This document shows, piece by piece, positions 4,948 to 25,235 of a stretch of DNA of 25,235 nucleotides. Origin of the DNA: a virus (lineage: Duplodnaviria; Caudoviricetes); the IMG/VR virus record IMGVR_UViG_3300032319_000377, positions 1 to 25,235 of that record; one strand, 5' to 3'. The translations under genes and the position numbers were made by a program. The notes beneath the pieces were generated by a model. The model was not told where the DNA came from, ran no database searches, and saw only the letters and a program-made list of their open reading frames with translations. Within the stretch, counting starts at the first letter, position 1. Each line of letters starts with the position of its first letter.

Positions 4948-6054
4948 CTAGCGACCCGCATTCGCAGGGTGGCTCAGGTTGTAGTCATACCGGCGGTAGA
5001 AAAAATTCAGCGCAGCATTTGAGGTTGTCTGGATGCCATATTGCACCTGAACCGCACCGGTACCGACGCGCCGCAGGTCAAGACCGTAGAGCGGATCGCC
5101 CCGCACCGCGTATTGGGATACGTCCAAGTGGATCAACCCAGGGTCGCTCTGCGTCCCGACCGTGAAGGAACCAATCGACGCCGGATCGTCAACAAGCGGG
5201 AAGGAATCGCCCTGCTGGGTCGCAATCTCCGCGCTGATCGAGTCGGTGGCAAGTGAACCCTGCCCGTATTCGATCACGGTATTCGACCCGAGAACGTCCT
5301 GCAAGCGGATTGAGTTCAGGACGGTGGATGAGCGTGGTGCGTTCGAACCGGCGGTAGTCATTGCAGTGATTGAGTGCAGCAGGCTGCCGACCGGAATGTT
5401 CTCGAACGTGCCAAAAGCACCACTGGTGCCGGAAAGCGCAGGCTGCGTTTGCAGCCACGTTGGAAGTGCGCGTGGCAGGTACGCCTCGAGCGGATCGCCA
5501 GCCTCGGGAAGCACGAGGTCGAGGTACACGTCAACCGTTGCCGCGTTCAGGGTCGCCCCTGAACCCATCGCCGTTGACGTGGCGAAGTTGCCTGTAAGAG
5601 TCAGGTTGCCGCCGGTGGAAGGCGGAATCCCCGCGGATAGGTCCCAGCGGTTTTCGTCCAGTCGACCACTTGCGCCGTTGAACACCAATGGAGCAACGCC
5701 GAAGTGAACATAATAGGCAAAGATCGCGCCATATACCGCCGTCTGCGAGCTGGCGGTTGGTGCCGGCCGCTTCGGCGAGAGCCACTGCAGGAAATGGCGG
5801 TTGTGGTAGAAGAAGGTCCGCATATCGAGCGCTTGGAAGTAGGTATGTCCTGCCCCGCTGAGCGTCAACGAAGAGATCAGCCGGTCCCAGAAGTCGTTAT
5901 AGGCGCCGGTCGTTGTGGTCGTGATCGAGCTGGGACGCACAACAATCCACATGCCAGTGATTGTCTGGGGCTTGTTGGACAGGTCGAGGGAAAAGGAGCC
6001 ACCGGAAGACCACGTGATGGAAACCGGGTGTCTGAGTGTTTGTCGCTTAGCCAC
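4948..6054 (-). CDS. Major capsid protein, double jelly-roll (STIV B345-like)
   Basis: 368 aa, beta-rich. TWSSGGSFSLDL, RLISSLTLSGAG, IPVGSLLHSI, SAEIATQ and LIHLDVSQY...LDLRR parallel recalled STIV MCP segments. Strong AAGGAG RBS, followed by a hairpin and vertex genes. Confidence 0.85.
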   Translation of the reverse strand: MAKRQTLRHPVSITWSSGGSFSLDLSNKPQTITGMWIVVRPSSITTTTTGAYNDFWDRLISSLTLSGAGHTYFQALDMRTFFYHNRHFLQWLSPKRPAPTASSQTAVYGAIFAYYVHFGVAPLVFNGASGRLDENRWDLSAGIPPSTGGNLTLTGNFATSTAMGSGATLNAATVDVYLDLVLPEAGDPLEAYLPRALPTWLQTQPALSGTSGAFGTFENIPVGSLLHSITAMTTAGSNAPRSSTVLNSIRLQDVLGSNTVIEYGQGSLATDSISAEIATQQGDSFPLVDDPASIGSFTVGTQSDPGLIHLDVSQYAVRGDPLYGLDLRRVGTGAVQVQYGIQTTSNAALNFFYRRYDYNLSHPANAGR

Positions 6055-6066
6055 GTATGAAACTCC

Positions 6067-6603
6067 TTAGAAACCCATCGTTCCGACGCCGGTAAGCGCC
6101 GAGGTTGACATGACCGCCTGCGCGGTCGTGCCCGAGCTAATGCCGGTCAGGTTCTGGTATCCGCCCTGATTGCCGGTTGCTGGCAGCATCGCTGCGCCCA
6201 TCTTCGGCAGCGCCTTCGCCGCACCGCTCACCGCACTCGTGACGCCGCTGCTGAAGCTCGGCTGCCCTTGCAACAGGTTGACCTGACCAACCAAGCTCGC
6301 GATCACGTCGCTTGCAGCGATTGCCGTCGCACCGAGTGCCACGTCGTCCTTGTGTTGCGAGCTGATCGGGAGCATCGGGCCAATAAATCCGGCGATGGCC
6401 GCGGCGGCGATGGTTTCCATTGCGCCGGTGCTGAGACCGGGCCGGACGCCGTCGACCATTGCGGCAACGCCGGGCAGGAAGCTGGTCAGGATCGCCCCGA
6501 CGTTCTTCGCTAGATAGACGCCTGACGCCGCGGCAACGCCACGCCCCACGTCAAGGCCCAGGACCTCTGGATTGTGGCCGTAGCGGCCGTAGTACCGTGC
6601 CAT
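6067..6603 (-). CDS. Membrane protein immediately upstream of the MCP (putative major internal-membrane protein)
   Basis: GGAGG RBS; several Ala/Gly-rich hydrophobic helices; N-terminal RYYGRYGHNP. Confidence 0.8.
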   Translation of the reverse strand: MARYYGRYGHNPEVLGLDVGRGVAAASGVYLAKNVGAILTSFLPGVAAMVDGVRPGLSTGAMETIAAAAIAGFIGPMLPISSQHKDDVALGATAIAASDVIASLVGQVNLLQGQPSFSSGVTSAVSGAAKALPKMGAAMLPATGNQGGYQNLTGISSGTTAQAVMSTSALTGVGTMGF

Positions 6604-8138: not shown

Positions 8139-10370
8139 TCATAGTTCGGGGTAGTCATCAGGTTGAGAGTCACCTTGCGTGTGCGTCAGCAGTCTCAGGC
8201 CAGTCCATATTCGCCGGCCCTTTGCTGCCTTTGACGGGACGAATCCACGCTCGCGTAGCACCGAACCCAACTGCACCGGATTCAGGAGCCGCTCCGAACT
8301 CGCCTGCGCCCAATCCGTGTACGCCTTGTGCAGCGCGGCACTCAGGACCTGCAACCCTTCGCCCACCTCGCACGCGTGATCGAGGAACTCGCCGAACCAG
8401 TCGCTCTCCTCGCGGTACGAGTCCGTCGCTGCCAGCACGCGCTTCGGTGGTTGCAACCCGTCGCGGTACCAGTGATGCGCGCCCTCGATCAGCCAGTCAA
8501 GCACGCCCTCGGCTTCCTCATCGCGCAGACGTTGCGGTAATGACTTGTCCTGCTCTTCGTCCGTTATGCGCGTCTCGAACGGGATCAGGATCAGCCGGTC
8601 CCAGAGTGCCTCGCCACCATCGCGGACCTGTGGGCGGTGGTTCGTGGTCAACCACACCGTATGTGACGGCGTGAACGTGAAGGGTGCCTCGAACAACCGG
8701 CGCGCCTGGACTGTGTCATCACCAGTCAGCCACTTCACACGCCCCTCGTTGAGCCGCCCGCCCTGATCCGTCTCCGCGCAGATCACGTACCGCGTGCCAT
8801 GCAGAGCCGCAAGGTCGGGCGACGCCGATCCGGCATGTGACAGGTTCTTGCGCGCCATCAAAATGTCCGACGGCAGGACCTGCGAAAAGCCCTCGCCGAT
8901 GATGTCCCGCACCAGTTCGAGCAGCGTCGTCTTGCCATTGCGCCCGACGCCGTGGCAGACAAACAAGCGACGCTCACGCGTGCTGCCGGTGATTGAATAC
9001 CCGAGCGCTCGACGCAGAAAGTGCCTGACCGCCGGGTCCGGCTGAATGCGGTTCAGGAATTGCCAGAAGAGCGGCATATCTGGGTGCAGGTCTGGTACCC
9101 ACGGCAGCGGCCGACCCTTGTACGCCACGATGCGCGTGATGTAATCCTCGCGTGTGTGCGGTGCGAGTGTCCGCGTGCGCAAATCGACGGTCCCTGTGGC
9201 GACGTTTAGGAGCCACTCGTTGCGGTCGAGTTGATCCGGCAGGATGCCGACGCCGGGAAGGTCCTGTGCAAGTGCCAGCATCGCCTGCAACCGCTGCCGA
9301 CTTTCCGACCGTTCAGCGTGCCTGACCAACGCGGTCCGCCTGGCCGATGGCATGTCCGGCGACCGATCAGCGGACGCGACATTGGTCAGCTCGCGGATTG
9401 TCTCGACGGCCAATCGCATCGGTCCGCCGGTACCGTCCGGCCGCCACCGCATGCCGTCCCAGATAAGCCACGTTTTCCACGCATGGACGTAGCGGAGGTT
9501 CTCACCGTGGCGCGCGATCATGCGCTCCGCGTTGCCGGAGTCCGTCAGTGGCTGGTGATCAATCGCGCGTGCGTCGGGCGCGTCCGGCACCGGTGCGCGG
9601 TACGCCGGTGCGGATTGTGCGAGCCGTTCGAGCGCCTCAAGGGTGCCACCCTGTGCAATCCAGTCGCTAACGTCTGCGCCTTTGCCGACGACCGGTAACG
9701 TGACGATCGACACGCTCGACGCGACGCCCGTCAGCGCCTGCGCGATGCGTTCCGCGCCCTTGAGTCCGGGCGCATCGTTGTCGGGAATGATGCGAACGAC
9801 GCGACCACGCAGCGCGTCGGCATACCGGTCGTGCCACTTCCCCGCACCCATCGGGACCGTCGTGACGGTGGCACCCAACCGCGCGAGATTGTCTGCGTCT
9901 TTCTCGCCCTCGACAAACCACACCGCATTGGCCGACGCGATCAGTTCCGGCAGCCGGTACAAAACAGTCTGCACGCCAGCCAGTGACCAGGTGTACCCCG
10001 AGTCCGTCACCGCGCGCTGCCGAAACGACTTCGGTTGGTATCTGAGGGTCTCGTGTATGACGCGCCCCGTCGCATCGCGGTAGGCATAGATCGCCACGGG
10101 CGCACCACTGGCCGACGGTGCAGCCGCACGTGGTACCCGGGCGGGAGGGTCTCGCCTCGGTAGGTGGCCCGAGGCTAGCAGCGCGTCACGCACCGCCTCC
10201 TGACTGCACCCCGCGTGGCAAAACCACAAGACCCGCCCGTCGTCACCGTCGCTGATTGACAGCGACGCCTGCCGATCCTCGTGCGCCGGACACTGCGCGA
10301 TCCACCCCTTCGCGACTCGCTTCCCGCCCAACGAGTGCCCGAGTTCAGCCGCGTTCGGATATGTGATCAT
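8139..10370 (-). CDS. Primase-helicase (Zn-binding + TOPRIM primase + D5/P4-type SF3 helicase)
   Basis: CPAHED...CHAGC; FVEGEKDAD and PDNDAPG (TOPRIM); LTDSGNAER (D5_N); Walker A GVGRNGKTT; KWLTGDD, TTNHRP, WDRL. ATG at 10370 overlaps the upstream TGA. Confidence 0.95.
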   Translation of the reverse strand: MITYPNAAELGHSLGGKRVAKGWIAQCPAHEDRQASLSISDGDDGRVLWFCHAGCSQEAVRDALLASGHLPRRDPPARVPRAAAPSASGAPVAIYAYRDATGRVIHETLRYQPKSFRQRAVTDSGYTWSLAGVQTVLYRLPELIASANAVWFVEGEKDADNLARLGATVTTVPMGAGKWHDRYADALRGRVVRIIPDNDAPGLKGAERIAQALTGVASSVSIVTLPVVGKGADVSDWIAQGGTLEALERLAQSAPAYRAPVPDAPDARAIDHQPLTDSGNAERMIARHGENLRYVHAWKTWLIWDGMRWRPDGTGGPMRLAVETIRELTNVASADRSPDMPSARRTALVRHAERSESRQRLQAMLALAQDLPGVGILPDQLDRNEWLLNVATGTVDLRTRTLAPHTREDYITRIVAYKGRPLPWVPDLHPDMPLFWQFLNRIQPDPAVRHFLRRALGYSITGSTRERRLFVCHGVGRNGKTTLLELVRDIIGEGFSQVLPSDILMARKNLSHAGSASPDLAALHGTRYVICAETDQGGRLNEGRVKWLTGDDTVQARRLFEAPFTFTPSHTVWLTTNHRPQVRDGGEALWDRLILIPFETRITDEEQDKSLPQRLRDEEAEGVLDWLIEGAHHWYRDGLQPPKRVLAATDSYREESDWFGEFLDHACEVGEGLQVLSAALHKAYTDWAQASSERLLNPVQLGSVLRERGFVPSKAAKGRRIWTGLRLLTHTQGDSQPDDYPEL

Positions 10371-10633
10371 GACTGGCCGCCTGTCGCGTTTTGCATCGCC
10401 TCGATCTCCGCCCAGGCATCCCACGCCACCGTGGCCGAGGCCACGAATGCGCTGTCCGGCAGTTCGATCAGGACGCACGCGGCACAGAACCACGCGCCAC
10501 GTTCGCCGTCCTCATTGACCGGCCCGAAGCGGTTATCGGACACCCACGTCTTCGCGCGGTGAGGACACCTCGGCGACGCGCACGGCATGGAGATTGCTAC
10601 GCCGTTGCTTTCTGTCGTCAGTTGTGGTGGCAT
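10367..10633 (-). CDS. Small Cys-containing (putative Zn-finger) protein
   Basis: GGGAGGG RBS, ATG at 10633; CASPRC...CAAC; coupled to the primase. Confidence 0.7.
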   Translation of the reverse strand: MPPQLTTESNGVAISMPCASPRCPHRAKTWVSDNRFGPVNEDGERGAWFCAACVLIELPDSAFVASATVAWDAWAEIEAMQNATGGQS

Positions 10634-14763: not shown

Positions 14764-15204
14764 ATGGTCGTTATTAGCGTCACGCTGCCGTATCCACCGT
14801 CGACCAATCACCTGTACCGGCGGTTGCGCGGTCAGCTCGCACTGACGCCGGAAGCTCGCGAGTTTCGCCACCACGCCCGTTTGATCTGCGCGAGTGTGGT
14901 TGACCGGCCGATCAGCGATCCGGTCGCGGTGTACCTCAGGATTTACCGCCCCCGTCGTGTCGGCGATCTGGACAATCTTCTCAAGGCCGTGCTTGATGCC
15001 TGCAACGGGGTGATCTGGGTTGATGATTCGCTGGTCACGGGGATTCACGCGCAACGGTTCGAGGATGCCAGAAATCCGCGGGTCGAGCTGACCGCGATCC
15101 CCGCGCCAACGATCAGCGCCACCTACGACGCGTTGTACGATCACTTGCACCAACTCCAGGCACTCACCGATGCCACCACGTCACCAAGTGACGCGGTCGG
15201 CTAG
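14764..15204 (+). CDS. rusA: RusA-family Holliday junction resolvase
   Basis: LPYPPSTNHLYR, GDLDNLLKAVLDA, WVDDSLV; AGGA RBS with ATG at 14764. Confidence 0.92.
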   Translation: MVVISVTLPYPPSTNHLYRRLRGQLALTPEAREFRHHARLICASVVDRPISDPVAVYLRIYRPRRVGDLDNLLKAVLDACNGVIWVDDSLVTGIHAQRFEDARNPRVELTAIPAPTISATYDALYDHLHQLQALTDATTSPSDAVG

Positions 15205-15870
15205 CCGTCGCCGCTCCGCGTCCGTCAATCGCAGGTAGATCGTCGTCGTATCGACGCGCGCATGGCCGAGGTGGTTTTGCACCTCGGTCAGCGGCAGGCC
15301 GGTTCGCAACAGATGCACCGCCGCCCCGTGGCGAAAGTCAAGCGGTGTCGCCAACCGCGCACCGTCCGCACCGATCACGCGCACTCCGGCGCGGTCCGAC
15401 GCACCCTGCACGATCCGGTGTACCTCTCGACGGCTGATCGGACGGTCGCCGCTGACGCGCGTCCGGAAGAGGTGCCCATCATTGGCGCACCGTGTATCTC
15501 GCCCGAACGCCACGAGCGCACCGATCAAGTCGGGTGCCACGTAGACCAGTTTGGTTCGCCGACGCTTCGTGCGTTGCTTGAGATTGGTTAGGTGTAGCGC
15601 ACCCTCGGCACGGTCAAGGTCGCACAGGCGGAGCGTCGCCACCTCGGACACGCGCCCGCCCGACTGCCACAGGACCTCGACGATCAACCGGTCACGCGTC
15701 GTGGCGCACGCCGCCACGAGTGCGCGAGCATCCTCGCGCGTCACGTAGGCGGGTGGTCCGCCCGAGCTGGCGCGTGCCACGCCGACGATTGCCGGCAACG
15801 GTACCGCGCGTTCCCCACGTTCTGGGACGTTCGGTCTAGCGAGTGTGATCGTGCCGCTTGTGCCTGTCAC
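15181..15870 (-). CDS. Tyrosine recombinase, catalytic domain only
   Basis: GGRVSE (R), LKQR (K), LDFRH (R), HLGH, TTTIY (Y); 229 aa with no N-terminal binding domain. Confidence 0.93.
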   Translation of the reverse strand: MTGTSGTITLARPNVPERGERAVPLPAIVGVARASSGGPPAYVTREDARALVAACATTRDRLIVEVLWQSGGRVSEVATLRLCDLDRAEGALHLTNLKQRTKRRRTKLVYVAPDLIGALVAFGRDTRCANDGHLFRTRVSGDRPISRREVHRIVQGASDRAGVRVIGADGARLATPLDFRHGAAVHLLRTGLPLTEVQNHLGHARVDTTTIYLRLTDAERRRLADRVTW

Positions 15871-15898: not shown

Positions 15899-15928
15899 TA
15901 CGTCACACAATACGGATACTGGGACGTA
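15899..15928. other. Putative tyrosine-recombinase target site (12-6-12 imperfect palindrome)
   Basis: tacgtcacacaa-tacgga-tactgggacgta, 28 bp upstream of the recombinase start; arms match at 9 of 12 positions. Confidence 0.65.
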
Positions 15929-15939
15929 AGCGTTTACTG

Positions 15940-16740
15940 TCACGACGTGACCGGCACTAGACGACCGTTTACATACACGCCGTCAATTCCGGTTTTTGGG
16001 TATTTCGCACGATTGGCCGTATAGCCTTTATCGCCTGCCGCTGGATACGTCATGGGGGTTAGAGTTTCATCTTCCCATTCGCCTTCTTTAGGGCGTGGGT
16101 GCATTGGCGATGGCACGGCAGTAGATCGCGATTGTTCGCGTTTCACCGACCAACCATTCTTGAGGCGTTTCACAATCGTCCCTATGCCCTCGTATTGACC
16201 GTACCCCCACGTGTACCAGAGGTGGACGCGTGATCCGACACTCAACGGGCCGCCCGATACTTTTTCCTCTGAAGCGGCAAGGGCTTGTGCCCGGGCCTCT
16301 TGGTACGCGGCTCGTCGCGCAAACGAGTCGGCTTCATCCGCCAATGCAAACGATTTGCGAATCTGTCGGTCGCGTGTGTTGAGTCCTGACCGACGCCGTG
16401 CCGTCATGACGCCGCCCCCCGCCATCGCGGCCTCTCGCAAATGGAACCGCACCGACGAACTGCGGGCCGCCACTTCGTCGCGCCGTTTGGCCTCTAAGGC
16501 GCGTAGACGTTCGGCGAGGGCTGCCGCGGCGGCGCTGCCGGACGGCGACACGCTGACGGGCGCCGGTTCGATTACAGGCGGTACGGTCTCCGGCACATCA
16601 AGCAATGACGGCTGGTACCACTCCGATGAACGAATAGGGTGGAACCGCCCGCTCCTGTCGCGGAATCCGGCGCCGGTGGGATTCCGGTTTGCATGGGACA
16701 ACCACCACAACGCACCGCCCAACGCAATAAACGGCCACAT
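15940..16740 (-). CDS. TM-RNP leader cargo protein A
   Basis: MWPFIALGGALWWLSHANRNPTG...; leader paralogous to 20166-21356; C-terminal beta-rich SH3-like segment. Confidence 0.8.
   Translation of the reverse strand: MWPFIALGGALWWLSHANRNPTGAGFRDRSGRFHPIRSSEWYQPSLLDVPETVPPVIEPAPVSVSPSGSAAAAALAERLRALEAKRRDEVAARSSSVRFHLREAAMAGGGVMTARRRSGLNTRDRQIRKSFALADEADSFARRAAYQEARAQALAASEEKVSGGPLSVGSRVHLWYTWGYGQYEGIGTIVKRLKNGWSVKREQSRSTAVPSPMHPRPKEGEWEDETLTPMTYPAAGDKGYTANRAKYPKTGIDGVYVNGRLVPVTS
16586..16719. repeat. 134-bp diverged repeat (leader of cargo A); partner at 21196-21329
   Basis: Colinear without gaps; 25 bp identical (gggacaaccaccacaacgcaccgcc). Confidence 0.9.
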
Positions 16741-16763
16741 AGCGCATCCTTCTCGGCACGTTG

Positions 16764-16868
16764 TCAGTCATCCAACAGTACCACCAGTACCAACGCCGCC
16801 ACTCCCAACCCAATCAGTGGAGCGTACGGACGGACGGATACTGGGACGTTAGTCCTCGTCCGCAACAA
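16764..16868 (-). pseudogene. Orphan C-terminal membrane-anchor fragment (or 34-aa microprotein)
   Basis: Reads NVPVSVRPYAPLIGLGVAALVLVVLLDD-stop; only a TTG start without a clear RBS; absent from the ORF track. Confidence 0.6.
16834..16849. repeat. 16-bp direct repeat of part of the recombinase site
   Basis: acggatactgggacgt is identical to 15912-15927. Confidence 0.9.
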
Positions 16869-17433
16869 GTACCAGAACCGCCAGACCGATCAGCCACCAC
16901 GGAAACGCACGTGACGCCGTCAGGCTGGCCGGTAGCGACGCCATCAGGCTGTCAACCGCGGGTCTCAGTGCCGCCGGGACGTAGTCGATCCTCGCCTCCC
17001 CGTAATCCGGTGCGACGGGCGCGGGTGGCGCCACCTGTACCTGCACGCCCTCCAGCCACTCCCGCGGGTCAATCGTGCCCGCGCCGTGAACGTCAACGAC
17101 TGGTCGATCAGTGATGGCAAAGTGTAGATGCGGCCCGGTCGTCTGCCCCGTCAGTCCGACGCTGCCAATCACTTGACCTGCCGTCACCGGCCCGATCACG
17201 CGCGTGTCAGGGTCGCTGCCGTGCCCGTAATACGCGGTCCGCGACCCGTCGAGGCTGATCAGGTACAATGCGTTCCCGGCAGTGGCGGACGAATACGGTC
17301 GCGTCACGCCGTCGAATACGGCGATCCACGGGGTGCCGAGTGCCGTCGGTAAATCAACCGCCCTGGTGCCGTCCCAATGATCGGTCACTCGCTGCCGTTC
17401 AGGCAACGGAAACGCGCCCGCCGTTGTCGCCAC
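16849..17433 (-). CDS. M23 peptidase with C-terminal membrane anchor (putative virion-associated)
   Basis: H...AVDL, YYGH, AGQVIGSVGLTGQTTGPHLHF, IDP; C-terminal PWWLIGLAVLVLVADED. Confidence 0.9.
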   Translation of the reverse strand: MATTAGAFPLPERQRVTDHWDGTRAVDLPTALGTPWIAVFDGVTRPYSSATAGNALYLISLDGSRTAYYGHGSDPDTRVIGPVTAGQVIGSVGLTGQTTGPHLHFAITDRPVVDVHGAGTIDPREWLEGVQVQVAPPAPVAPDYGEARIDYVPAALRPAVDSLMASLPASLTASRAFPWWLIGLAVLVLVADED

Positions 17434-17434
17434 G

Positions 17435-17734
17435 CTATCCGTCCGGAAACAGGCGCATTGATAGCGCCTTGATTGTGTCGGCGAGTGTCTGCAACCGCAT
17501 CCGGTAACTGATCAGCTTCCGCTGATGCGTCACCGTCCCTGCGGGTGGTGCCGGTTTGGCGCGCTCGTACTGGTATCGACTGTTGAGGGTCTCGTAGGTC
17601 GCCTCCACCTTCCAGAGCTTATTCCGGATCGCGTCGTAATTCGGGCCACGCGTCGGATTGCGCCTCCGAGCGCTGCCAACGAAACTGCCCGCTGCTCCGT
17701 GTCGGTGCGCCCGAGTGCATCCCGGATAGTGCAA
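17435..17734 (-). CDS. His/Cys-leader RNP cargo protein (99 aa)
   Basis: TTG start with AGGA RBS; MHYPGCTRAHRHGAAGSFVGSARRRNP. Confidence 0.75.
   Translation of the reverse strand: MHYPGCTRAHRHGAAGSFVGSARRRNPTRGPNYDAIRNKLWKVEATYETLNSRYQYERAKPAPPAGTVTHQRKLISYRMRLQTLADTIKALSMRLFPDG
17658..17733. repeat. 76-bp diverged repeat (His/Cys leader); partner at 18466-18541
   Basis: Colinear at offset 808; shares ctgccaacgaaactgcccgc. Confidence 0.9.
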
Positions 17735-17754
17735 AGTAGTTGTCCTTTGTTCTG

Positions 17755-18132
17755 CTAACTGGTACGGACGAACGTGCGGAAAAAGCCACGCCGCTTTTTG
17801 TGCGCATCCCGTCCAGCTCGTGTGCTTTCACCCAAATTGTCAATGTCTGCGCCGGTAGAAAAACCCAACTTGCGCTGAACGGAGGCCAGTTTGGCTTCCG
17901 CTCGCTTGATTGCTGATTGTTTGCTGCTCAGCCATTTGGTGGTTCCGGGCCAGTACGGTAGGCCTTGACGTAGTTCTGACAGCCGGTCGTACAACGCTTG
18001 CTTTTCCGCTAATAGTTCTGCGCGCGTTGGATTGCGGCGCAGCGTAGAGCGTTGTGGATTGCGTTCCTTGCGCCCTTTCAGATACCAATACGCGCCGCCC
18101 ACCGCCGCGAGTGCCAATAGTTTGTTATCCAT
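17755..18132 (-). CDS. TM-RNP leader cargo protein with two RNP motifs
   Basis: MDNKLLALAAVGGAYWYLKGRKERNPQRSTLRRNPT; basic helical cargo. Confidence 0.8.
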   Translation of the reverse strand: MDNKLLALAAVGGAYWYLKGRKERNPQRSTLRRNPTRAELLAEKQALYDRLSELRQGLPYWPGTTKWLSSKQSAIKRAEAKLASVQRKLGFSTGADIDNLGESTRAGRDAHKKRRGFFRTFVRTS

Positions 18133-18179
18133 CGTGATCGTCCTTTCAGCCGGTTAAAATTGTAGATTAATCTTGACCC

Positions 18180-18542
18180 TTACCGGGGTATAGACTGATT
18201 GGGATACTTGCCGTAGCGCTTGCGATAGGCTTCGTAAGCGGTAATGGTGGCCGTGCGTTTGTCAAAGTCAGCCTTTTGCAGCTGGTACCACCGGTCACGC
18301 CACCGCTCAGCTTCCGGCGATCCGGGGCCGTAATTCCGTTCGGCGCGTTCCCATTCAGCAAGTACCCTATCTTCTTTTAAGCGGTTCGCGCCTTCGCTCA
18401 ATCGCGCTTGCATTAGTGTCGGTGCGCGCTTGCTTACCGCGTAGGTTTTTCGCATCGGCTTCGGGTTGCGCCTCCGCCCACTGCCAACGAAACTGCCCGC
18501 CGCACCGTGTTTGTGTGCGCGTTTGCATCCTGGATAGTGCAC
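18180..18542 (-). CDS. His/Cys-leader RNP cargo protein (120 aa)
   Basis: AGGAG RBS, GTG start; MHYPGCKRAHKHGAAGSFVGSGRRRNP. Confidence 0.8.
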   Translation of the reverse strand: MHYPGCKRAHKHGAAGSFVGSGRRRNPKPMRKTYAVSKRAPTLMQARLSEGANRLKEDRVLAEWERAERNYGPGSPEAERWRDRWYQLQKADFDKRTATITAYEAYRKRYGKYPNQSIPR

Positions 18543-18563
18543 TGCATTACTCCTTTTCGTGTG

Positions 18564-18917
18564 TCAGGCTAACCGGTTAGCCACTTTGTTTGATTCTATC
18601 GCCCGTCGCGCCCACGCAAGCGCCCGCATCGACTGTGGCCGGGTTCCACCGCCCCACAACGCGTGCGCCACGACGCCCGGGCTTGGGTACCCATCCGCGC
18701 CGGGTTTCGCCCGTGGTGCGTCGAGGTCCACCAGGTGCCTAGCAAACCACGCGACCATCCGCGTTGCCTTGTCGATCGTCATGCGACCCTGCGCCATTGC
18801 GCGCGCCTCATTGATCGTCTGCGCTCGCAGACCGGGTCCGCCCCGACCCTGTGCGACCCACGCAACGCCACGTGACGCGTTGTAACGCAACCACGCAGGC
18901 ACGGCCTCGACGTACAT
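18564..18917 (-). CDS. Conserved small phage domain protein (RMxxWFARH...YPSPG...LWGG)
   Basis: Motif recalled from head-morphogenesis regions of tailed phages; function unknown. Confidence 0.75.
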   Translation of the reverse strand: MYVEAVPAWLRYNASRGVAWVAQGRGGPGLRAQTINEARAMAQGRMTIDKATRMVAWFARHLVDLDAPRAKPGADGYPSPGVVAHALWGGGTRPQSMRALAWARRAIESNKVANRLA

Positions 18918-18919
18918 CG

Positions 18920-19138
18920 CTACTTACCCTTGCCGAGTCCGCGCAACGTCAACGCGAGACGCGCCCGTTTCGCCACCAGTCCACACGCACGCGCCGCAAT
19001 CCGCAGCATTGCCGCCGGTATCGTCTCGCCCGTGGGAATGCCGAGCTGCCGGTGCAGGCTGCCGGGTTTGTGTTTTGCGAGTGCGCCCGCGATCCACTTG
19101 CGGGGTTCGGGGTTCCGTCGTTTCTGTGCGGGCCTCAC
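18920..19138 (-). CDS. Small basic RNP protein (KWI...KPGSLHRQLGIP...IP...RARLAxTL)
   Basis: GTGA coupling; KRRNP precedes a recognisable small basic phage domain. Confidence 0.8.
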   Translation of the reverse strand: MRPAQKRRNPEPRKWIAGALAKHKPGSLHRQLGIPTGETIPAAMLRIAARACGLVAKRARLALTLRGLGKGK

Positions 19139-20169
19139 GCCGTCACCTTGCGCTTTCGGGTCTTGCGTTCCGCGGTCAGTTCGGCCGCAAGTTTCGCCGC
19201 CTTGGCGTCCAGTTGCGCCCGCCGTCGGCTGAGCTGGCGTAGTACGCGCTCCTCTTCCCTTGCACCACCCTCGGCGGCCTTGCGAACCGTTTCGTGATGG
19301 TCAATCACGGACAGGTAGTACGACGCCTCCTCCTGCCTCGACGCGTCAGTGTCGCGCACGCGTCGCCACCGGGTGCGTTGAGCGTCGAGGTACTGGCGAA
19401 ACGCCTTGCCCCACGCCCCGGTGTGCAGTCCGACCGGGACGCCGGTACGTGTGTCATACGTGATGTAGCGACGCTTCCGGCGGGTCTTGTCTGCCGTGAA
19501 AATGGGAAACCCATCGGCATCCTCGCCGAGGTACTCGCCTCGCTCGGTCACGTCCTGATCAATCCACTTCCGACGGTCGGCGGGCAAGAACGCTGCTACC
19601 TTCTGCCGGTCTCCCCCGAGTTCCTTGACCGTAAATTCGAGGTTGTCGAGGTACGTTCTGCGTGCGTCCGCCCCAAGCGCGCGGGCTTTGGACCGTATCT
19701 CGCGTTCCTGGGTCCGCAGTGCGTTAGCCTCAGTGCGCGTCGATGCAACCTCTGCCGCATACGTGCGGGTCCGCGCGTCCTGGTACCGGTCTCCCAACCG
19801 TTGCCGCAGGGGAATTCGCACGACCGTACCGTCTTCCCTCTTGCGACTGAAAAAATCACCCTTTGCCCACTTGACGCGCGGGACGGCGACGGGCTGGTAC
19901 TCGTCGCGTTCCCGCACTTCACGCGCTGCGGCCTCGGCCGCCTCGCGCGCCTCTCGACGCTTGGCGGCGTTGATTGATCGTGTGTATCCGGCCATATTGG
20001 CGAGTCGGCGCATCGCCGCGCTGCTCTTGCCATCAATACCGCCAATGATGGGTGCGTCTGGGTCGTAAGGGTTGCGTGCGGGTCGTGACAACCAGTACCA
20101 CGCCGCGCCGAGTATTCCGAGGGTCGCCAACGGGTTCACGACGTAAGTACCTTTTATCTGCGCGTTCAT
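19135..20169 (-). CDS. TM-RNP leader cargo protein (Arg-rich, helical)
   Basis: NPLATLGILGAAWYWLSRPARNPYDP; start at ATG 20169 or GTG 20139. Confidence 0.8.
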   Translation of the reverse strand: MNAQIKGTYVVNPLATLGILGAAWYWLSRPARNPYDPDAPIIGGIDGKSSAAMRRLANMAGYTRSINAAKRREAREAAEAAAREVRERDEYQPVAVPRVKWAKGDFFSRKREDGTVVRIPLRQRLGDRYQDARTRTYAAEVASTRTEANALRTQEREIRSKARALGADARRTYLDNLEFTVKELGGDRQKVAAFLPADRRKWIDQDVTERGEYLGEDADGFPIFTADKTRRKRRYITYDTRTGVPVGLHTGAWGKAFRQYLDAQRTRWRRVRDTDASRQEEASYYLSVIDHHETVRKAAEGGAREEERVLRQLSRRRAQLDAKAAKLAAELTAERKTRKRKVTA

Positions 20170-21356
20170 CCGAGGTAGCTTTCGGGCGCCATTTGTTTCA
20201 GGCGCGCCAGTACCGCCTTGGCAATGTCTACCTGTGCCACGGCTTTACGATGCTGGGCAGCGGGCCACTTATCCTTACTTAGCAGATAGTCGATGGTTTC
20301 GGTCACCCGTTCTTCCGCCCGGCGTACCGCACTCTCCCAACGCATCGCGTTTTGCATTTCGCGCTGAAACTTGCGGCTTGCCTCATCGCGTTTGTGCTTT
20401 TCCCACTCCTCATGCTGCCGCCGATTGCGTTCTTCGAGCTTGGCAATCTCCGCCAGTCCCTCCTTGTCATCAGGCAACACAAACCGCCCTGGTTCGAGTT
20501 CGCGCACGCCGTTAGCTGCGGCTTCTTCCTGGGCAGCGGTGTACCGGTCGCGCGCCTCGTCAAGCGTGCGCTGCAAACCGCGTGAGTCGAACCGCGCCAA
20601 TTCGGGGCTGTATTTGTCGTAGGCTTCGGCCACCGCGACCAGTTTGGCGTTCGTCGCGTCCCATGCTCGTAGCTGTTTGAGCTTTTTCTTGGCGACCGCA
20701 ACAGCTATGGAGACCTTGGCCTTGTCAGGATCGCCGGGCAAGATTATCCGGTTGAGCTGGTCAGGCAATCTTCGCAGCATCTCGATGAAGGGCGCTGCGT
20801 CGCGGGCCCGCGTATATGGAGTAGGTATCCGCGTTGGCGTGGACAGGTAGGCCGTGTCCCGCAACGAGGCGCCTAATGCCTGGACGGTGGGCGAAGTCAT
20901 GTAATGGAGGGAATCCCATAGCGCGTATAGCCCATCCTGAAAATCTTTGTCTTGATTGCTTTGTTCCGCCCTCAGGCGTGCCTGCTCCTCGCCTAACTTG
21001 TCACGTTCTCGCTCAAGCGCAGAGTAGGCTTCCCACTGCTGCCTGTTTGAGTCCTCGACCTCGCGTAAATCGTTGCGTGCGTTGATCACACGGTCAATGT
21101 ACGTCTGGTAGTTCACTTGCGCAGTAACCGGCAAACGCGCGGGCCGTGCGGGTCTGGGCGCTGTCGCCACTACAGAACGTGGCGTCCGTGCCTTTGTCTC
21201 CGGTTCATCGAGCAACGACGGCTGGTACCACTTCGAATTACGAATCGGATGAAACTTCCCTGACTTGTCGCGGTAGCCCGCACCGGTCGGGTTGCGATTT
21301 ACTCGGGACAACCACCACAACGCACCGCCAACAACGGCCAGACCTATCGGGTTCAT
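20166..21356 (-). CDS. TM-RNP leader cargo protein B (long coiled coil)
   Basis: MNPIGLAVVGGALWWLSRVNRNPTG...; charged heptad-rich body. Confidence 0.82.
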   Translation of the reverse strand: MNPIGLAVVGGALWWLSRVNRNPTGAGYRDKSGKFHPIRNSKWYQPSLLDEPETKARTPRSVVATAPRPARPARLPVTAQVNYQTYIDRVINARNDLREVEDSNRQQWEAYSALERERDKLGEEQARLRAEQSNQDKDFQDGLYALWDSLHYMTSPTVQALGASLRDTAYLSTPTRIPTPYTRARDAAPFIEMLRRLPDQLNRIILPGDPDKAKVSIAVAVAKKKLKQLRAWDATNAKLVAVAEAYDKYSPELARFDSRGLQRTLDEARDRYTAAQEEAAANGVRELEPGRFVLPDDKEGLAEIAKLEERNRRQHEEWEKHKRDEASRKFQREMQNAMRWESAVRRAEERVTETIDYLLSKDKWPAAQHRKAVAQVDIAKAVLARLKQMAPESYLG

Positions 21357-21360
21357 GGCA

Positions 21361-21993
21361 TCAGTACCTTAAGTACTTTGGTCTGAAAGCCGTATCTAAG
21401 TGTTCGCGCACGCGCCACGTGTCGTCTTCTCCGGTTATTTTGAAGCGTTTCATTCCGGCGGCGATGATGCTTTTACGTTTGGCTTCCACCTGCGCGACAG
21501 TCCACTTCGGCACATCGCTCATTTTCTTGCCGCTAGCGCCCATTCGTTCTAAAGCGGTTGGCTTGCGCTTGTACGTTCCGGGGTCTGGCAATTCGGCCAT
21601 ATCATCCTTGATTGCCGCTTCTACCTTCGCGGCTAGTTCGCGCCACCGCGCGTAATCTTCCCAGCTCGGCGGGTTGTCGAATAGCCCGGGCAACCCGCGC
21701 TGGGTCGTTTGGCGTGGGGCTACGTCGAATAGCGTTGCTTGTGTGCCAGCGTCGATCCGCAATTGCATGAGGTCATCTAGGGCGCGTCGGTATTTGGCCT
21801 TTGCTTGTTGGCTTGTGGAGGCTCCGCGAGCCGCATCGGCCAGCTCGCGCACCTTCTCCTCAGCTTTGTCGATCGCGCCTGCGCGAACCACACTGGGGCG
21901 CCTACCTCGTGTTGGATTACGATGCATGTTCGGTCGCGACAGGTACCACAACGCACCGCCAAACGCGATCAATCCAAGGACAGACCGATCCAT
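21361..21993 (-). CDS. TM-RNP leader cargo protein (210 aa)
   Basis: ATG at 21993 in a TGATG overlap; MDRSVLGLIAFGGALWYLSRPNMHRNPT; internal DNPP. Confidence 0.8.
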   Translation of the reverse strand: MDRSVLGLIAFGGALWYLSRPNMHRNPTRGRRPSVVRAGAIDKAEEKVRELADAARGASTSQQAKAKYRRALDDLMQLRIDAGTQATLFDVAPRQTTQRGLPGLFDNPPSWEDYARWRELAAKVEAAIKDDMAELPDPGTYKRKPTALERMGASGKKMSDVPKWTVAQVEAKRKSIIAAGMKRFKITGEDDTWRVREHLDTAFRPKYLRY

Positions 21994-22478
21994 CAGAAAA
22001 GCTCCTGCCGCATACTGCTTGTGAACTGAAGGGACGTCCCGAGACTGACCGCGTCTGGTGCGTTCAACCGTGCCGCCGGTTCGAGGAGCGTCGGCACACT
22101 CTGGTACGGACGCGTCAGACCAATGCCGGCCGCATCCGTCACCAACGACGGGCCGCCTAGGAGCGCCTCGACGGCATCCTTCCGGTACTCCCGCGGCATA
22201 TGCCCTTCGTAGACGTTGACCAGTACCGCCATCGTGCCAACACTTGCCGCGAGCGGCACCCAGGATCGTGCAATCCACGAGATCACGCCTGCGGACAACA
22301 GCGCGATAGCCGCTGCCGGACGGTACGACGCGCGGTGCCGTTCACACTCGGCGGGACTGGTCGCCTCCGCGCGGATTTGCGCGAGGTTCGATCCCATGTT
22401 TCCGTAGACGTTGGCAGTCTCGCTGACTGCCAGCAGGGTCCACGCGGCTAACTCGGTATTACCAATCGGCGGCTGCAT
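21993..22478 (-). CDS. Membrane protein coupled to the packaging ATPase
   Basis: TGATG overlaps; hydrophobic hairpin AAAIALLSAGVISWIA / WVPLAASVGTMAVLV. Confidence 0.75.
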   Translation of the reverse strand: MQPPIGNTELAAWTLLAVSETANVYGNMGSNLAQIRAEATSPAECERHRASYRPAAAIALLSAGVISWIARSWVPLAASVGTMAVLVNVYEGHMPREYRKDAVEALLGGPSLVTDAAGIGLTRPYQSVPTLLEPAARLNAPDAVSLGTSLQFTSSMRQELF

Positions 22479-23470
22479 CAGCGGTGTCCCTTGTTGTAAC
22501 TCAGGCGGTCAGACCAGAAACTCGGCAGCTGGAAATGCACCGGCCCCCGGTACTCGCTGCTGATCACCCACGCGTGCCGTTTGCGTTCGCTCTCCGAGAT
22601 TGCCTGCCAGAACGGTTCGGCCTCGGTTATGAACGGTGCAAGTTCCTGTCGCTCAATTGCCTGCCACATCATGGGTGGAGGCTTGAGGAAAATCGCGTCC
22701 GCGTCGAGCGAGTACTTCGTGACGGCCGCCGCATATTGCACGTTCACGACGCAGTTGATATTCAGATGCCGAATGATCTGCACCAAGTGCTTAAACGCCT
22801 TAACAGCGCCCCCGCCACTGGAGGCACTGTCAAGCACGATCCCGGCGTCATCCACGATCAGGCTGGACCCGTGCGGGAGCGCCTCTTCCAGCCAATCGTG
22901 CGGCCGTGAGTCGAGTTCCTCGGGCGCGTCGTCATCCTCGACGGCGTCGGTATCCGCGTCAATCACGGTACGGCGCTTGACGCGTCGCACGCGCTGATCA
23001 ACCGGAACGCGAAGCTCGTGCCATCCCGGCGGGAGCTTGTCCTGACTGATGCCCCACGCGTAGGTGTCACGATCCCACAGCTCGCAGAGCCGTGCGGCCA
23101 GTGCCGTCTTTCCCGTCTTGCGCAGGCCAAGCACGAAGACCAGGCCGCCGTCAAGACCGCGGATATCCCGCACGACCTTACGTTCACCCGATCCGCTGTA
23201 CCACGGCGCACACACGGTACAGGCGGCACCCGCGGGAATCTCCGTGACCGACGCGCCCTGTGGTTGCGTCCAGCCGCGCGCATCGGCAAACTGCACCGCG
23301 CTCGTAAACAGCGACGCGCCCTCGGGTCCCAGCAGAATCGACGCCGCCTGTGGGCCGAGTTCGCGCACCAAGCGATCCGCCGCCGCCACGTTGCCAGTGG
23401 TGGCCGCGTGCGCCTGTGGTGCGTACCGGGCGGCGTTGATCAGCTTCTGGAGGTTCCCGAGGTTGAGCAT
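22478..23470 (-). CDS. Genome packaging ATPase (FtsK/HerA superfamily, A32-like)
   Basis: Walker A GLRKTGKT, Walker B LIVDD, and IRHLNINCVVNVQ (RH and sensor Q typical of DJR-virus ATPases). Confidence 0.88.
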   Translation of the reverse strand: MLNLGNLQKLINAARYAPQAHAATTGNVAAADRLVRELGPQAASILLGPEGASLFTSAVQFADARGWTQPQGASVTEIPAGAACTVCAPWYSGSGERKVVRDIRGLDGGLVFVLGLRKTGKTALAARLCELWDRDTYAWGISQDKLPPGWHELRVPVDQRVRRVKRRTVIDADTDAVEDDDAPEELDSRPHDWLEEALPHGSSLIVDDAGIVLDSASSGGGAVKAFKHLVQIIRHLNINCVVNVQYAAAVTKYSLDADAIFLKPPPMMWQAIERQELAPFITEAEPFWQAISESERKRHAWVISSEYRGPVHFQLPSFWSDRLSYNKGHR

Positions 23471-23482
23471 CGGTACCGTACC

Positions 23483-23746
23483 TTAGGCCTTTGCCATGTT
23501 TGGACGCATGAGCAGGTAGTACGCGAGCGCCGCTGCGCCCACATACATAAGCGTCTTGCTACCAGACTTTTTGCCGTACATCGGCATCTCCGGGTTGCGT
23601 CGCGTGCGTCGTTTCATTGCCATCGGCGCCGTCTCTCCTCGCCACATCTTGCCTGCCGCCTTCAGGGCGCGGGCGTGATCCGCTGCCGACGCGTTTGCCG
23701 GCAGACTGCGCAGGACGTTTGTGCTAAACGTTTTCCACGTCTCCAC
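23483..23746 (-). CDS. Small basic protein with RRNP and C-terminal TM
   Basis: AGGAG plus GTG at 23746; METWKTF...KAAGKMWR, then RRTRRNP, then LMYVGAAALAYYLLM. Confidence 0.75.
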   Translation of the reverse strand: METWKTFSTNVLRSLPANASAADHARALKAAGKMWRGETAPMAMKRRTRRNPEMPMYGKKSGSKTLMYVGAAALAYYLLMRPNMAKA

Positions 23747-23763
23747 GGTAAGTACTCCTGACC

Positions 23764-24240
23764 TCACGCTACCGGCGCAGTGTCGGTCGCTGCCGACGCT
23801 GAGCCGCCAAACCATCTGCGCGCCTGCGCGACCGCGGCTGCAATGCTGTCTGCGGTGCCGACGAGTGTGCCCTCATTTATTGTCACGACCTGCTTTGACG
23901 CGCTGTTCCACGCAAACCCGGGCGCGCCTTGTGGCCCCAGGTCAATCACCGCGTTCGTTCCCGTTGCTCCGGTCGACGGTGGCGGAGCAGGTGCGCCCGT
24001 GGCGCCTGCGTTGAAAAATGCCTTTACGATCTGTACCGCCTCGTCAATTGTGGCGGCCGTGCCTATGTCGGTGTTTTCCTTGATGGTCCTCACCCGATGC
24101 GTCCAAGGATGCCACGAGAACCCGGCCGCACCTTTCGGGCCAAGGTCGACGGGCGGTTGGGTGGACTGGTAGTACCAGTACGCGCCACCACCGACCGCGC
24201 CGACAATCGCTAACCGTCCGAACAATGAAGAACGCGCCAT
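23764..24240 (-). CDS. N-anchored membrane protein with two 46-aa repeats
   Basis: ATG at 24240 (TAATG overlap); LAIVGAVGGGAYWYY; two DLG...GFxW...GTA repeats. Confidence 0.8.
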   Translation of the reverse strand: MARSSLFGRLAIVGAVGGGAYWYYQSTQPPVDLGPKGAAGFSWHPWTHRVRTIKENTDIGTAATIDEAVQIVKAFFNAGATGAPAPPPSTGATGTNAVIDLGPQGAPGFAWNSASKQVVTINEGTLVGTADSIAAAVAQARRWFGGSASAATDTAPVA

Positions 24241-24554
24241 TATCCCACCAATCCTCGGCCGTCCTGCCAACGCATTGGACCGGCCAACCGTGGCGGTTTT
24301 CCGGGTTCCGTGATCAGGTACTCGGGTCGTTTTTCCGGTGCAACACCGTCGCCCCGGTCGCCCGCCTCGTGACGCCACCGCGAGCCGTCCGCCCGCTCAT
24401 ATTCGACTGCGAGCAACCGGTGAACGTGTTCGCGCCCGTGCCGGTTTATCAGCGCCCCGACCGCGGCACGCGCCCCGTCACTGACCGGATTGCGACGCAG
24501 GACGCCGCTTAACCACGCCACGTCAGGATCAGTCGCGTGTGATCGTCTTCGCAT
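24240..24554 (-). CDS. RRNP protein with small beta-rich C-terminal domain
   Basis: LRRNPVS; VEYERADGSRWRHEAG...GRGLVG; operon tiling. Confidence 0.72.
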   Translation of the reverse strand: MRRRSHATDPDVAWLSGVLRRNPVSDGARAAVGALINRHGREHVHRLLAVEYERADGSRWRHEAGDRGDGVAPEKRPEYLITEPGKPPRLAGPMRWQDGRGLVG

Positions 24555-24558
24555 CGCC

Positions 24559-25020
24559 CTACCCGTTTGCCGCGTACCACGCGCGCGCGATCAGTACCGC
24601 GTCCGATTTGGTGTCTGCATGCCCGATGACGGTTCGCTCACGGATGGTTAGGACCGCACCCGTGCTGTCCCACGCAAACCCGGCCGCCGCCGGGTCCTCC
24701 GCGCCAAGGTCGACGCTTCGCCCTGGTGCCGGAAGCGCCTGCCGGTTGGCCCCCGTCGAGGTTGATCCAGCGGTCGTGTTTGGCGCGCCGCCCGGACGGT
24801 CGACGACACTTGTACGACCGAAAGCCTTTTGAAGCGCATCGGTCGTACCGGTCGAGACCAGGCCGCCCGCCTGTCCAATGGTCGTCGTCAACGCTTGCAA
24901 CGGCAGACCAAACAACCCGCCCTGCGCCGCCTTGTAGGCGACGTAGCCACCCGCGACATACAACGCGACGCGTCCGTACCGCGTCGTCCCTCGCCCACCG
25001 AAATCAGGATTGCGTCTCAC
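24559..25020 (-). CDS. RRNP-TM membrane protein with one copy of the 46-aa repeat
   Basis: GAGGAG plus GTG at 25020; MRRNPDF...VALYVAGGYVAY...VDLG...GFAW. Confidence 0.78.
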   Translation of the reverse strand: MRRNPDFGGRGTTRYGRVALYVAGGYVAYKAAQGGLFGLPLQALTTTIGQAGGLVSTGTTDALQKAFGRTSVVDRPGGAPNTTAGSTSTGANRQALPAPGRSVDLGAEDPAAAGFAWDSTGAVLTIRERTVIGHADTKSDAVLIARAWYAANG

Positions 25021-25030
25021 GCCCGTCTCC

Positions 25031-25235
25031 TCAGTCGTCCAACAATACCAGTGCGCCAATTGCGAGACCCGCAAGCAGCACCCACGGGGCGACCGTACCC
25101 GCCGGTGCCAGTGCCGAGCTGACCGCCGACGTGACCCCCGAGGTTGCCGATGCGCCCGCCGGGACCTTGCCGGTCGATACGTCCACGGCTAGTGACCACC
25201 GAATCAAAAACGGCGCGATGGACAATGTCAGCACA
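25031..25235 (-). CDS. Two-TM small membrane protein, 3' part, ending PWVLLAGLAIGALVLLDD
   Basis: In-frame continuation across the junction; C-terminal hydrophobic helix plus acidic tail. Confidence 0.8.
   Translation of the reverse strand, partial: VLTLSIAPFLIRWSLAVDVSTGKVPAGASATSGVTSAVSSALAPAGTVAPWVLLAGLAIGALVLLDD
25113..25235. repeat. Terminal direct repeat, right copy
   Basis: Identical to 1-123, implying a 25,112-bp circle. Confidence 0.98.

Follow-up and report, generated by a model that had tools for sequence, protein, structure and literature searches.

What does a single tripeptide do when it recurs in 11 genes of one small virus? In the complete virus record IMGVR_UViG_3300032319_000377 of IMG/VR (25,235 bases; this whole stretch is called the window below), Arg-Asn-Pro (R-N-P, RNP) occurs at 12 sites, all in frame, in 11 late genes, which like all the genes studied here lie on the minus strand. 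The initial annotation of this DNA had named the same sites and genes, together with an H-N-P variant in the membrane protein that precedes the major capsid protein, which we located at residue 10 of the 6067-6603 product, and had proposed that RNP loads diverse cargo into the virion and releases it. The comparisons below indicate that RNP, with Asn-Pro as its core, marks junctions between protein modules in the late genes. That these junctions are cleavage sites, with the domain encoded at 24240-24554 as the enzyme, is the explanation we prefer, at about an even chance of being right.

RNP is enriched in the late genes of the virus and its relatives

In the 16 late genes (3023 amino acids, aa), the 12 RNP copies compare with a mean of 0.51 in per-protein shuffles (maximum 5; 0/5000 reached 12); the other 24 genes (4951 aa) contain none, nor do any of the 13 early or lysis genes. 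No tripeptide in the 40 gene products was more over-represented than RNP (Poisson p = 8e-10; approximately 6e-6 after 8000 tests), which about a quarter of the genome's genes carry. The closest relatives are four IMG/VR records, G001 to G004, whose capsid proteins are 75-99% identical to that of the window. Four genomes were counted, with gene sets and start codons curated by hand and with G001, nearly identical in core genes, excluded: the window had 12 copies, G002 14, G003 13 and G004 9, against 0.3-0.5 expected (0/1000 shuffles each). These three relatives, all complete records, bear RNP on largely different cargo. The enrichment and the co-occurrence of RNP arrays with this capsid clade, which the initial annotation had set as checks, were supported, and the shuffles in the window and relatives ruled out chance from an Arg/Pro-rich composition. 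The motif-bearing genes of the window, described from the sequence unless stated otherwise, are as follows.

15940-16740, minus strand: hydrophobic leader, RNP (16678-16686) and cargo; an optional cassette (also from strain comparison)
17435-17734, minus strand: basic HYPGC-type leader, RNP (17654-17662) and helical cargo
17755-18132, minus strand: hydrophobic leader, two RNP (18055-18063, 18028-18036) and basic cargo
18180-18542, minus strand: HYPGC-type leader, RNP (18462-18470) and basic cargo, which is replaced at the motif in G001 and lake strains
18920-19138, minus strand: short basic leader, RNP (19109-19117) and basic module
19135-20169, minus strand: hydrophobic leader, RNP (20068-20076) and 310-aa basic cargo (also from strain joints)
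20166-21356, minus strand: hydrophobic leader, RNP (21288-21296) and 373-aa cargo
21361-21993, minus strand: hydrophobic leader, RNP (21913-21921), shared module, D-N-P (21670-21678) and variable module (also from a strain joint)
23483-23746, minus strand: conserved N-terminal module, RNP (23591-23599) and C-terminal hydrophobic segment
24240-24554, minus strand: candidate reader or processing enzyme; leader, RRNP (24486-24494) and conserved domain with C-terminal GLVG (family alignment)
24559-25020, minus strand: N-terminal RRNP (25006-25014), hydrophobic segment and conserved body
6067-6603, minus strand: membrane protein upstream of the capsid gene, with H-N-P at 6568-6576 (N-terminal NP in 15/16 homologues)

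These proteins are less unrelated than had been supposed. Genes 15940-16740 and 20166-21356 share 134 nucleotides (nt) at 79%, 17435-17734 and 18180-18542 share 99 nt at 80%, and one hydrophobic leader type is common to five RNP genes. Because of this partial paralogy and shared leader, we count about seven independent copies, for which a hand calculation gives P(>=7 | 0.5) of approximately 1e-6.

The signal lies mainly at the protein level, as the initial annotation had concluded from differing codons. Across the four genomes, RNP was encoded 48 times in frame and 6 times out of frame; Pro is written with any of its four codons and Asn with both of its own, and the Arg codons include AGG. Some codon bias was nevertheless present (AAT in 34/48 vs 93/272; CGY in 37/48 vs 510/1078), which is expected if RNP copies descend from and recombine with each other. 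Arg precedes Asn-Pro at 50/51 sites, the residues upstream are basic and those following NP are free of constraint. NP preceded by other residues shows no excess in this clade (the window and G002 to G004). In more distant relatives, NP persists in non-shuffled genes at approximately 20-28% protein identity; at the motif position of 23483-23746, S/R/V/A-NP stands in relatives and in the four proviruses or fragments checked from Chloroflexota (G005, G082, G216). Asn-Pro is the deeper core of the motif, with Arg preferred. A scan of viral contigs with a DNA pattern for the hydrophobic leader plus RNP returned seven loci, three of them known relatives and four unrelated chance matches.

The motif separates leaders from cargo and cargo modules from each other

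In a survey of 46 motif proteins from the four genomes, RNP followed an N-terminal hydrophobic segment in 20, within 2-6 residues in 19 of those 20 and with net basic cargo in 19. It preceded a hydrophobic segment in 9/46, and the remaining 17/46 had no segment above the chosen threshold and mostly carried short basic leaders. In all 11 motif proteins of at least 200 aa, the first motif lies at residue 19-25. The placement at leader/cargo boundaries described by the initial annotation was thus borne out, and the flanking charges suggest that RNP and cargo are on the cytoplasmic face of the membrane.

The motif is also conserved in homologues, except that the pre-capsid protein of G002 has lost it. 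This membrane protein precedes the capsid gene in 16/16 loci examined, and its N-terminal NP, as RNP, HNP, SNP or doubled forms, was present in 13/14 aligned homologues plus the relatives G091 and G216.

Most window genes encode one or two modules; in some relatives, two to eight are linked in one chain and separated by (R)NP. The G003 gene at 15785 has the order anchor-RNP-RNP-module-RNP-module-DNP-module, G002 27348 and G001 22798 have two motifs each, and G091 (5010-6164) has VNP, SNP and HNP around a DUF6582 domain. In the complete 39-kb record G406, of which 18,964 of 39,045 bases were examined, proteins of 380 aa and 345 aa carry eight and seven NP. A motif kept between successive modules of one chain favours a cleavage mark, as a docking tag is needed only once; this argument from gene arrangement is indirect, and it is the main one for processing.

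Other features of these proteins were also noted. A DLGxxxxxGFxW domain is repeated in three copies across the anchored proteins 23764-24378 and 24559-25020. The first module after RNP in 15940-16740, 20166-21356, G091 5010-6164 and G004 21813/24906/26244 contains a D-x-x-G-x-F/I-H-P-I-R or W-I-T-x-x-G-K-H-R-P peptide, shared even with the distant G091, which may be a second sorting or DNA-binding signal. A PBECR-like nuclease domain lies in the same block of related proviruses (G005 C193 62751-63608; G216 C152, L057 4594-5205; P0101), and in P0101 it is fused via NP linkers to a 24240-type domain. The family call was made on the RNP protein of G005 only, which matched a PBECR2-like nuclease at E 2.6e-5, below the Pfam cut-off.

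Modules are exchanged at the motif

The motif site also proved to be a DNA crossover point for module shuffling, which, like the D-N-P junction at 21670-21678, had not been part of the initial annotation. Pairwise comparison of 50 sites gave 27 pairs sharing the upstream side only and 4 sharing the downstream side only. The cargo of 17435-17734 is identical over 45/45 nt past the motif in G001, yet stands behind an unrelated upstream module there. G003 20244 combines the 17755-18132 leader with the 18180-18542 cargo, and in other strains the cargo of 19135-20169 is joined to the leader type of 20166-21356 (20068 to 21289, 8 nt shared).

In contigs of three other freshwater runs, joints were found at 17663, 18461, 20068 to 21289 and 21669/21670, the last of which led to the recognition of the D-N-P junction. 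Strain-joint ends fell on the 13 xNP nonamers in 6/20 cases (p = 2e-7; 1e-5 with the count confined to the variable block), with joints placed at 85% likeness, a level at which joints from other organisms are possible, and with several of the other ends at gene starts or stops. Between genomes and among lake strains alike, leaders and cargo modules are exchanged precisely at the RNP codons. All functional genes require these 9 nt at the boundary, so the codons would also serve as microhomology for recombination. One whole gene is optional: 16-nt direct repeats (15913-15928 and 16835-16850) flank 15940-16740, which is missing in strains of runs X2 and X7 with the joint at the repeat.

The following genes lie within or beside the block.

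15181-15870, minus strand: tyrosine recombinase adjoining the cargo block (Pfam, PHROG)
16849-17433, minus strand: M23 peptidase with C-terminal anchor, a wall enzyme without RNP inside the cargo block (Pfam)
21993-22478, minus strand: conserved membrane protein without RNP; homologues in L006, L011 and L016 have RNP after the last hydrophobic segment
22478-23470, minus strand: P-loop ATPase, presumably for packaging (Walker A GLRKTGKT; the G091 homologue matches AAA families)

RNP genes are interleaved with the ATPase and wall enzymes. The recombinase is not thought to drive the shuffling.

A conserved domain encoded at 24240-24554 is the best candidate reader of the motif

The initial annotation had compared the motif with the T4 capsid targeting sequence and adenovirus core maturation, an analogy that did not extend to the enzymes: no T4-type, adenovirus-type (Ulp1) or other known maturation protease was detected among the 40 open reading frames (ORFs) of the window with Pfam and PHROG, and 125 ORFs chosen from five relatives contained no protease apart from wall hydrolases. 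HExxH was absent from all real genes of the window (the single six-frame occurrence is outside a gene frame) and from the 89 members of the 24240 family described next.

The 24240-24554 product has 104 aa and is 68-98% identical in G001 to G004. Its domain was found in 4/401 Chloroflexota genomes, including all three that have this capsid protein; G082 has the domain and the ATPase without a capsid match, on a contig that begins inside the structural block. A profile search gave 91 clusters, of which two multi-stretch repeat matches were dropped, and the 89 left were aligned with the window protein (90 rows). Y52, H62, D66 and G68 are invariant in 90/90 rows and H39 is present in 84/90; 84/89 C-termini end in Gly, 81 of them in G-x-x-G (GLVG in the window). 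An N-terminal hydrophobic segment occurs in 23 members, and in NP-delimited proteins the domain comes last. Among the 53 longer members, the N-terminal extensions contain 46 NP vs 5.7 expected, and this extension count alone is independent of the search, since the NP nearest the domain lay in the query.

The family had no match in Pfam, PHROG or PDB and no usable match in the Atlas. Its predicted model has a predicted local distance difference test score (pLDDT) of 54, and fold searches with this low-confidence model (Foldseek viral, PDB and a wide structural search) gave no significant match. Judged by His/His/Asp peptidases, H39 and H62-x-x-x-D66 with a Tyr are compatible with a metal site. 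From its conservation and company, the domain is the best candidate for a reader or cutter of RNP; a binding or structural role instead of an enzymatic one is also possible. Gene 18564-18917, which lies within the cargo block without RNP, matches phrog_2859 (E 8e-11) and is kept in the four close relatives, is a second candidate partner.

Possible roles of the motif

If the junctions are cleaved, each cargo would travel on its membrane anchor or basic leader to the membrane or genome of the assembling particle. Of the two functions first proposed for RNP, processing suits the tandem module-NP-module strings; sorting is likelier to belong to the leaders, with RNP as the release point. The 24240 domain would first free itself and then probably cut at the motif, releasing basic modules that would serve as DNA-binding core or early-acting anti-host proteins. 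We put forward more tentatively, as a proposal with the chances against it, that membrane-containing double-jelly-roll viruses of Chloroflexota-type hosts run a combinatorial cargo system, in which any module that recombines in behind a 9-nt RNP junction is tethered to the membrane, packaged and released as a virion protein, and the cutter is a new miniature, self-freeing His/His/Asp metalloprotease. It would amount to adenovirus-type maturation in a bacterial virus, carried out by an unrelated enzyme, and the motif would be a protease site and a recombination hotspot at once.

Several observations weigh against cleavage. No recognised maturation protease was found, although a very divergent Ulp1 copy is possible, and the low-confidence model of the 24240 domain lends little to the putative metal site. 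The free residues after NP leave thin specificity for a protease, and the codon bias counts against it since the copies are not independent. NP is lost from the G002 pre-capsid protein, and 21993-22478 has RNP only in some relatives. The predicted topology is a further difficulty: PRD1-type budding turns the cytoplasmic face of the membrane towards the capsid, where cargo of up to 645 aa is hard to accommodate unless cleavage releases it or the membrane closes in the opposite sense.

The strongest alternative, which we regard as possible though unlikely, is that RNP is bound and not cut, a basic Asn-Pro turn that docks on capsid protein, ATPase, 24240 domain or DNA and thereby draws each protein into the particle. 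In 15/16 homologues of the pre-capsid protein the motif stands at the very N-terminus, where cleavage would take off only 5-15 residues; the doubled forms RNPANP, SNPANP and DNPYNP suit avidity, the upstream residues are basic and no known protease was found. Docking does not readily explain why motifs are kept between successive cargo modules, where one tag suffices, why they stand at a fixed 2-6 residues from an anchor that already localises the protein, or why the motif was lost from the G002 pre-capsid protein.

It is improbable that the Asn-Pro bond breaks spontaneously by cyclisation of the Asn side chain, the chemistry of NPTH autocleavage in FlhB/YscU, with the 24240 domain doing something else. 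The known cases lie inside a folded domain, whereas RNP is in variable linkers, and the preference for Arg at 50/51 sites, with no enrichment of other NP in the clade, suggests a binding pocket. The invariant NP core across distant relatives and the missing protease would fit such a mechanism, and NPTH of FlhB/YscU/SpaS, documented as an autocleavage motif in the accessible part of PMC4620466, is a precedent for a bond broken within Asn-Pro, but as a single autocleavage in a folded domain.

A very improbable view is that the nonamer CGYAATCCN is primarily a DNA recombination site for cassette shuffling, perhaps used by the adjacent tyrosine recombinase, with the peptide as a by-product. The crossovers exactly on the nonamer, the CGY/AAT bias and the neighbouring integrase gene agree with it. 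The excess of in-frame copies and the use of all Pro codons, both Asn codons and AGG do not, nor does the persistence of NP in non-shuffled genes; the nonamer has no conserved flanks or inverted arms, and no integrase homologue was found in G002. Least probable of all are late membrane or cytoplasmic effectors that act in the producing cell and in which RNP is a site for a host protease or simply a linker: the predicted cytoplasmic orientation, the PBECR2-like nuclease with RNP in G005 and the conjectural virion membership of RNP proteins would allow it, but the ATPase and wall enzymes are encoded among these genes, the pre-capsid protein carries the motif and 0/13 early or lysis genes have it.

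Comparison with known systems

The leader of T4 internal proteins is removed by the prohead protease. These proteins are diverse, strain-variable small cargo with a capsid targeting sequence (as outlined in PMC3012670), and the RNP system resembles them in that very different cargo proteins share a short conserved signal. T4, a tailed phage, uses a single soluble leader; the leaders here are of several types, some of them membrane anchors, the tripeptide also stands between modules, and scans of the 40 ORFs with Pfam and PHROG found no prohead protease family, so this is not a T4-type system.

Polyvalent proteins are shuffled strings of unrelated domains for which packaging and separation by a peptidase of their own have been suggested (Iyer et al. 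2017, PMC5512222, in part). The strings of G003 15785, G091 5010-6164 and G406 and the PBECR2-like domain with RNP in G005 are similar, but the zincin of polyvalent proteins (HExxH/HExxxH) was not found here, which sets the RNP proteins apart from that class. No junction motif is named in the accessible portion of PMC5512222, and the modules here are small, basic and membrane-anchored.

The adenovirus/polinton protease cuts at Gly-containing sites. As in that Ulp1 system, one short site code is present on many core and membrane-related proteins; unlike it, which is eukaryotic and uses a cysteine protease, the viruses studied here have no Ulp1-family gene detected in the window or the 125 ORFs of relatives. 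Pro-Pro endopeptidases, secreted bacterial zincins that prefer VNP/PVP, join NPTH as precedents for breaking a bond within or just after Asn-Pro; they need Pro after the cut, whereas the residues after NP are free here. Integron and shufflon cassettes have extended recombination sites with conserved or inverted arms, in contrast to a degenerate in-frame nonamer with flanks that are not conserved.

Maturation proteases of double-jelly-roll viruses have been discussed for polintons and adenoviruses (PMC6260650; bioRxiv 10.1101/2024.03.18.585575; PMC13552765, each in the sections available), and reviews, as far as these sections go, tie them to the eukaryotic branch. The main text of the prokaryotic double-jelly-roll survey by Yutin (2018, PMC5894146) does not contain "protease", "cleav" or "Chloroflex", and no published description of the RNP motif was found in the full-text literature, subscription journals and supplements aside. 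The RNP junction system is real, replicated and apparently undescribed, and it extends the leader-plus-cargo theme. If it works as proposed, variable proteins would be loaded and released in modular fashion, which would account for the ability of small viruses to maintain a payload that changes quickly. As reagents, an Asn-Pro-specific cutter or a minimal loading tag would be useful, and RNP and the 104-aa domain are a directly testable pair of one protein and a three-residue substrate.

The virus, its relatives and its host

The genome has approximately 63% G+C and a 123-nt direct terminal repeat (copies at 1-123 and 25113-25235). ORF 25017-25235 runs across the junction and is found whole in G001 (16332-16592). 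Among the 40 ORFs, Pfam and PHROG named a lytic transglycosylase, two M23 peptidases, a primase-helicase, an integrase, helix-turn-helix proteins and spike-like domains; PHROG "tail" labels were confined to the transglycosylase (SLT), M23 and spike-like domains, and neither a portal nor a terminase family was detected. An assembly artefact was ruled out, as the stretch is present in one contig of a run (possibly the source run) and the relatives come from other records. A promoter and terminator scan gave no signal above the shuffle level.

4948-6054, minus strand: major capsid protein, probably double jelly roll (Atlas feature scores 0.96-0.97, clusters named P2/P3 coat protein)

The capsid protein had no sequence match in Pfam, PHROG or PDB, and its single-sequence fold (pLDDT 33.5) was too low to use; its Atlas feature neighbours make it probably a double-jelly-roll protein. 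With the putative packaging ATPase and no portal, terminase or tail genes among the 40 ORFs, as in double-jelly-roll viruses, the record is likely an uncultured, tailless bacterial virus. The many small late proteins with hydrophobic anchors point to an internal membrane.

Further relatives were 17 metagenome loci, two contigs of Chloroflexota metagenome-assembled genomes (35-43%) and G406. The G091 capsid protein used as a query matched no viral contig, and INPHARED cultured phages had no match to the capsid protein, the ATPase or a 24240 homologue. The D5-like primase-helicase (8139-10493) is common to G001 and G091 and was not found in G002 to G004; from this distribution, the replication module appears to vary within the clade.

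Related proviruses sit in Chloroflexota genomes, which makes this phylum the leading host candidate. At loose ends 19162 and 19717 (run X7), contigs matching the cargo gene 19135-20169 continue into an identical 28-nt sequence, which we take to resemble a type I-E repeat of clustered regularly interspaced short palindromic repeats (CRISPR); these contigs are probably host spacers against this virus, and hence a route to its host.

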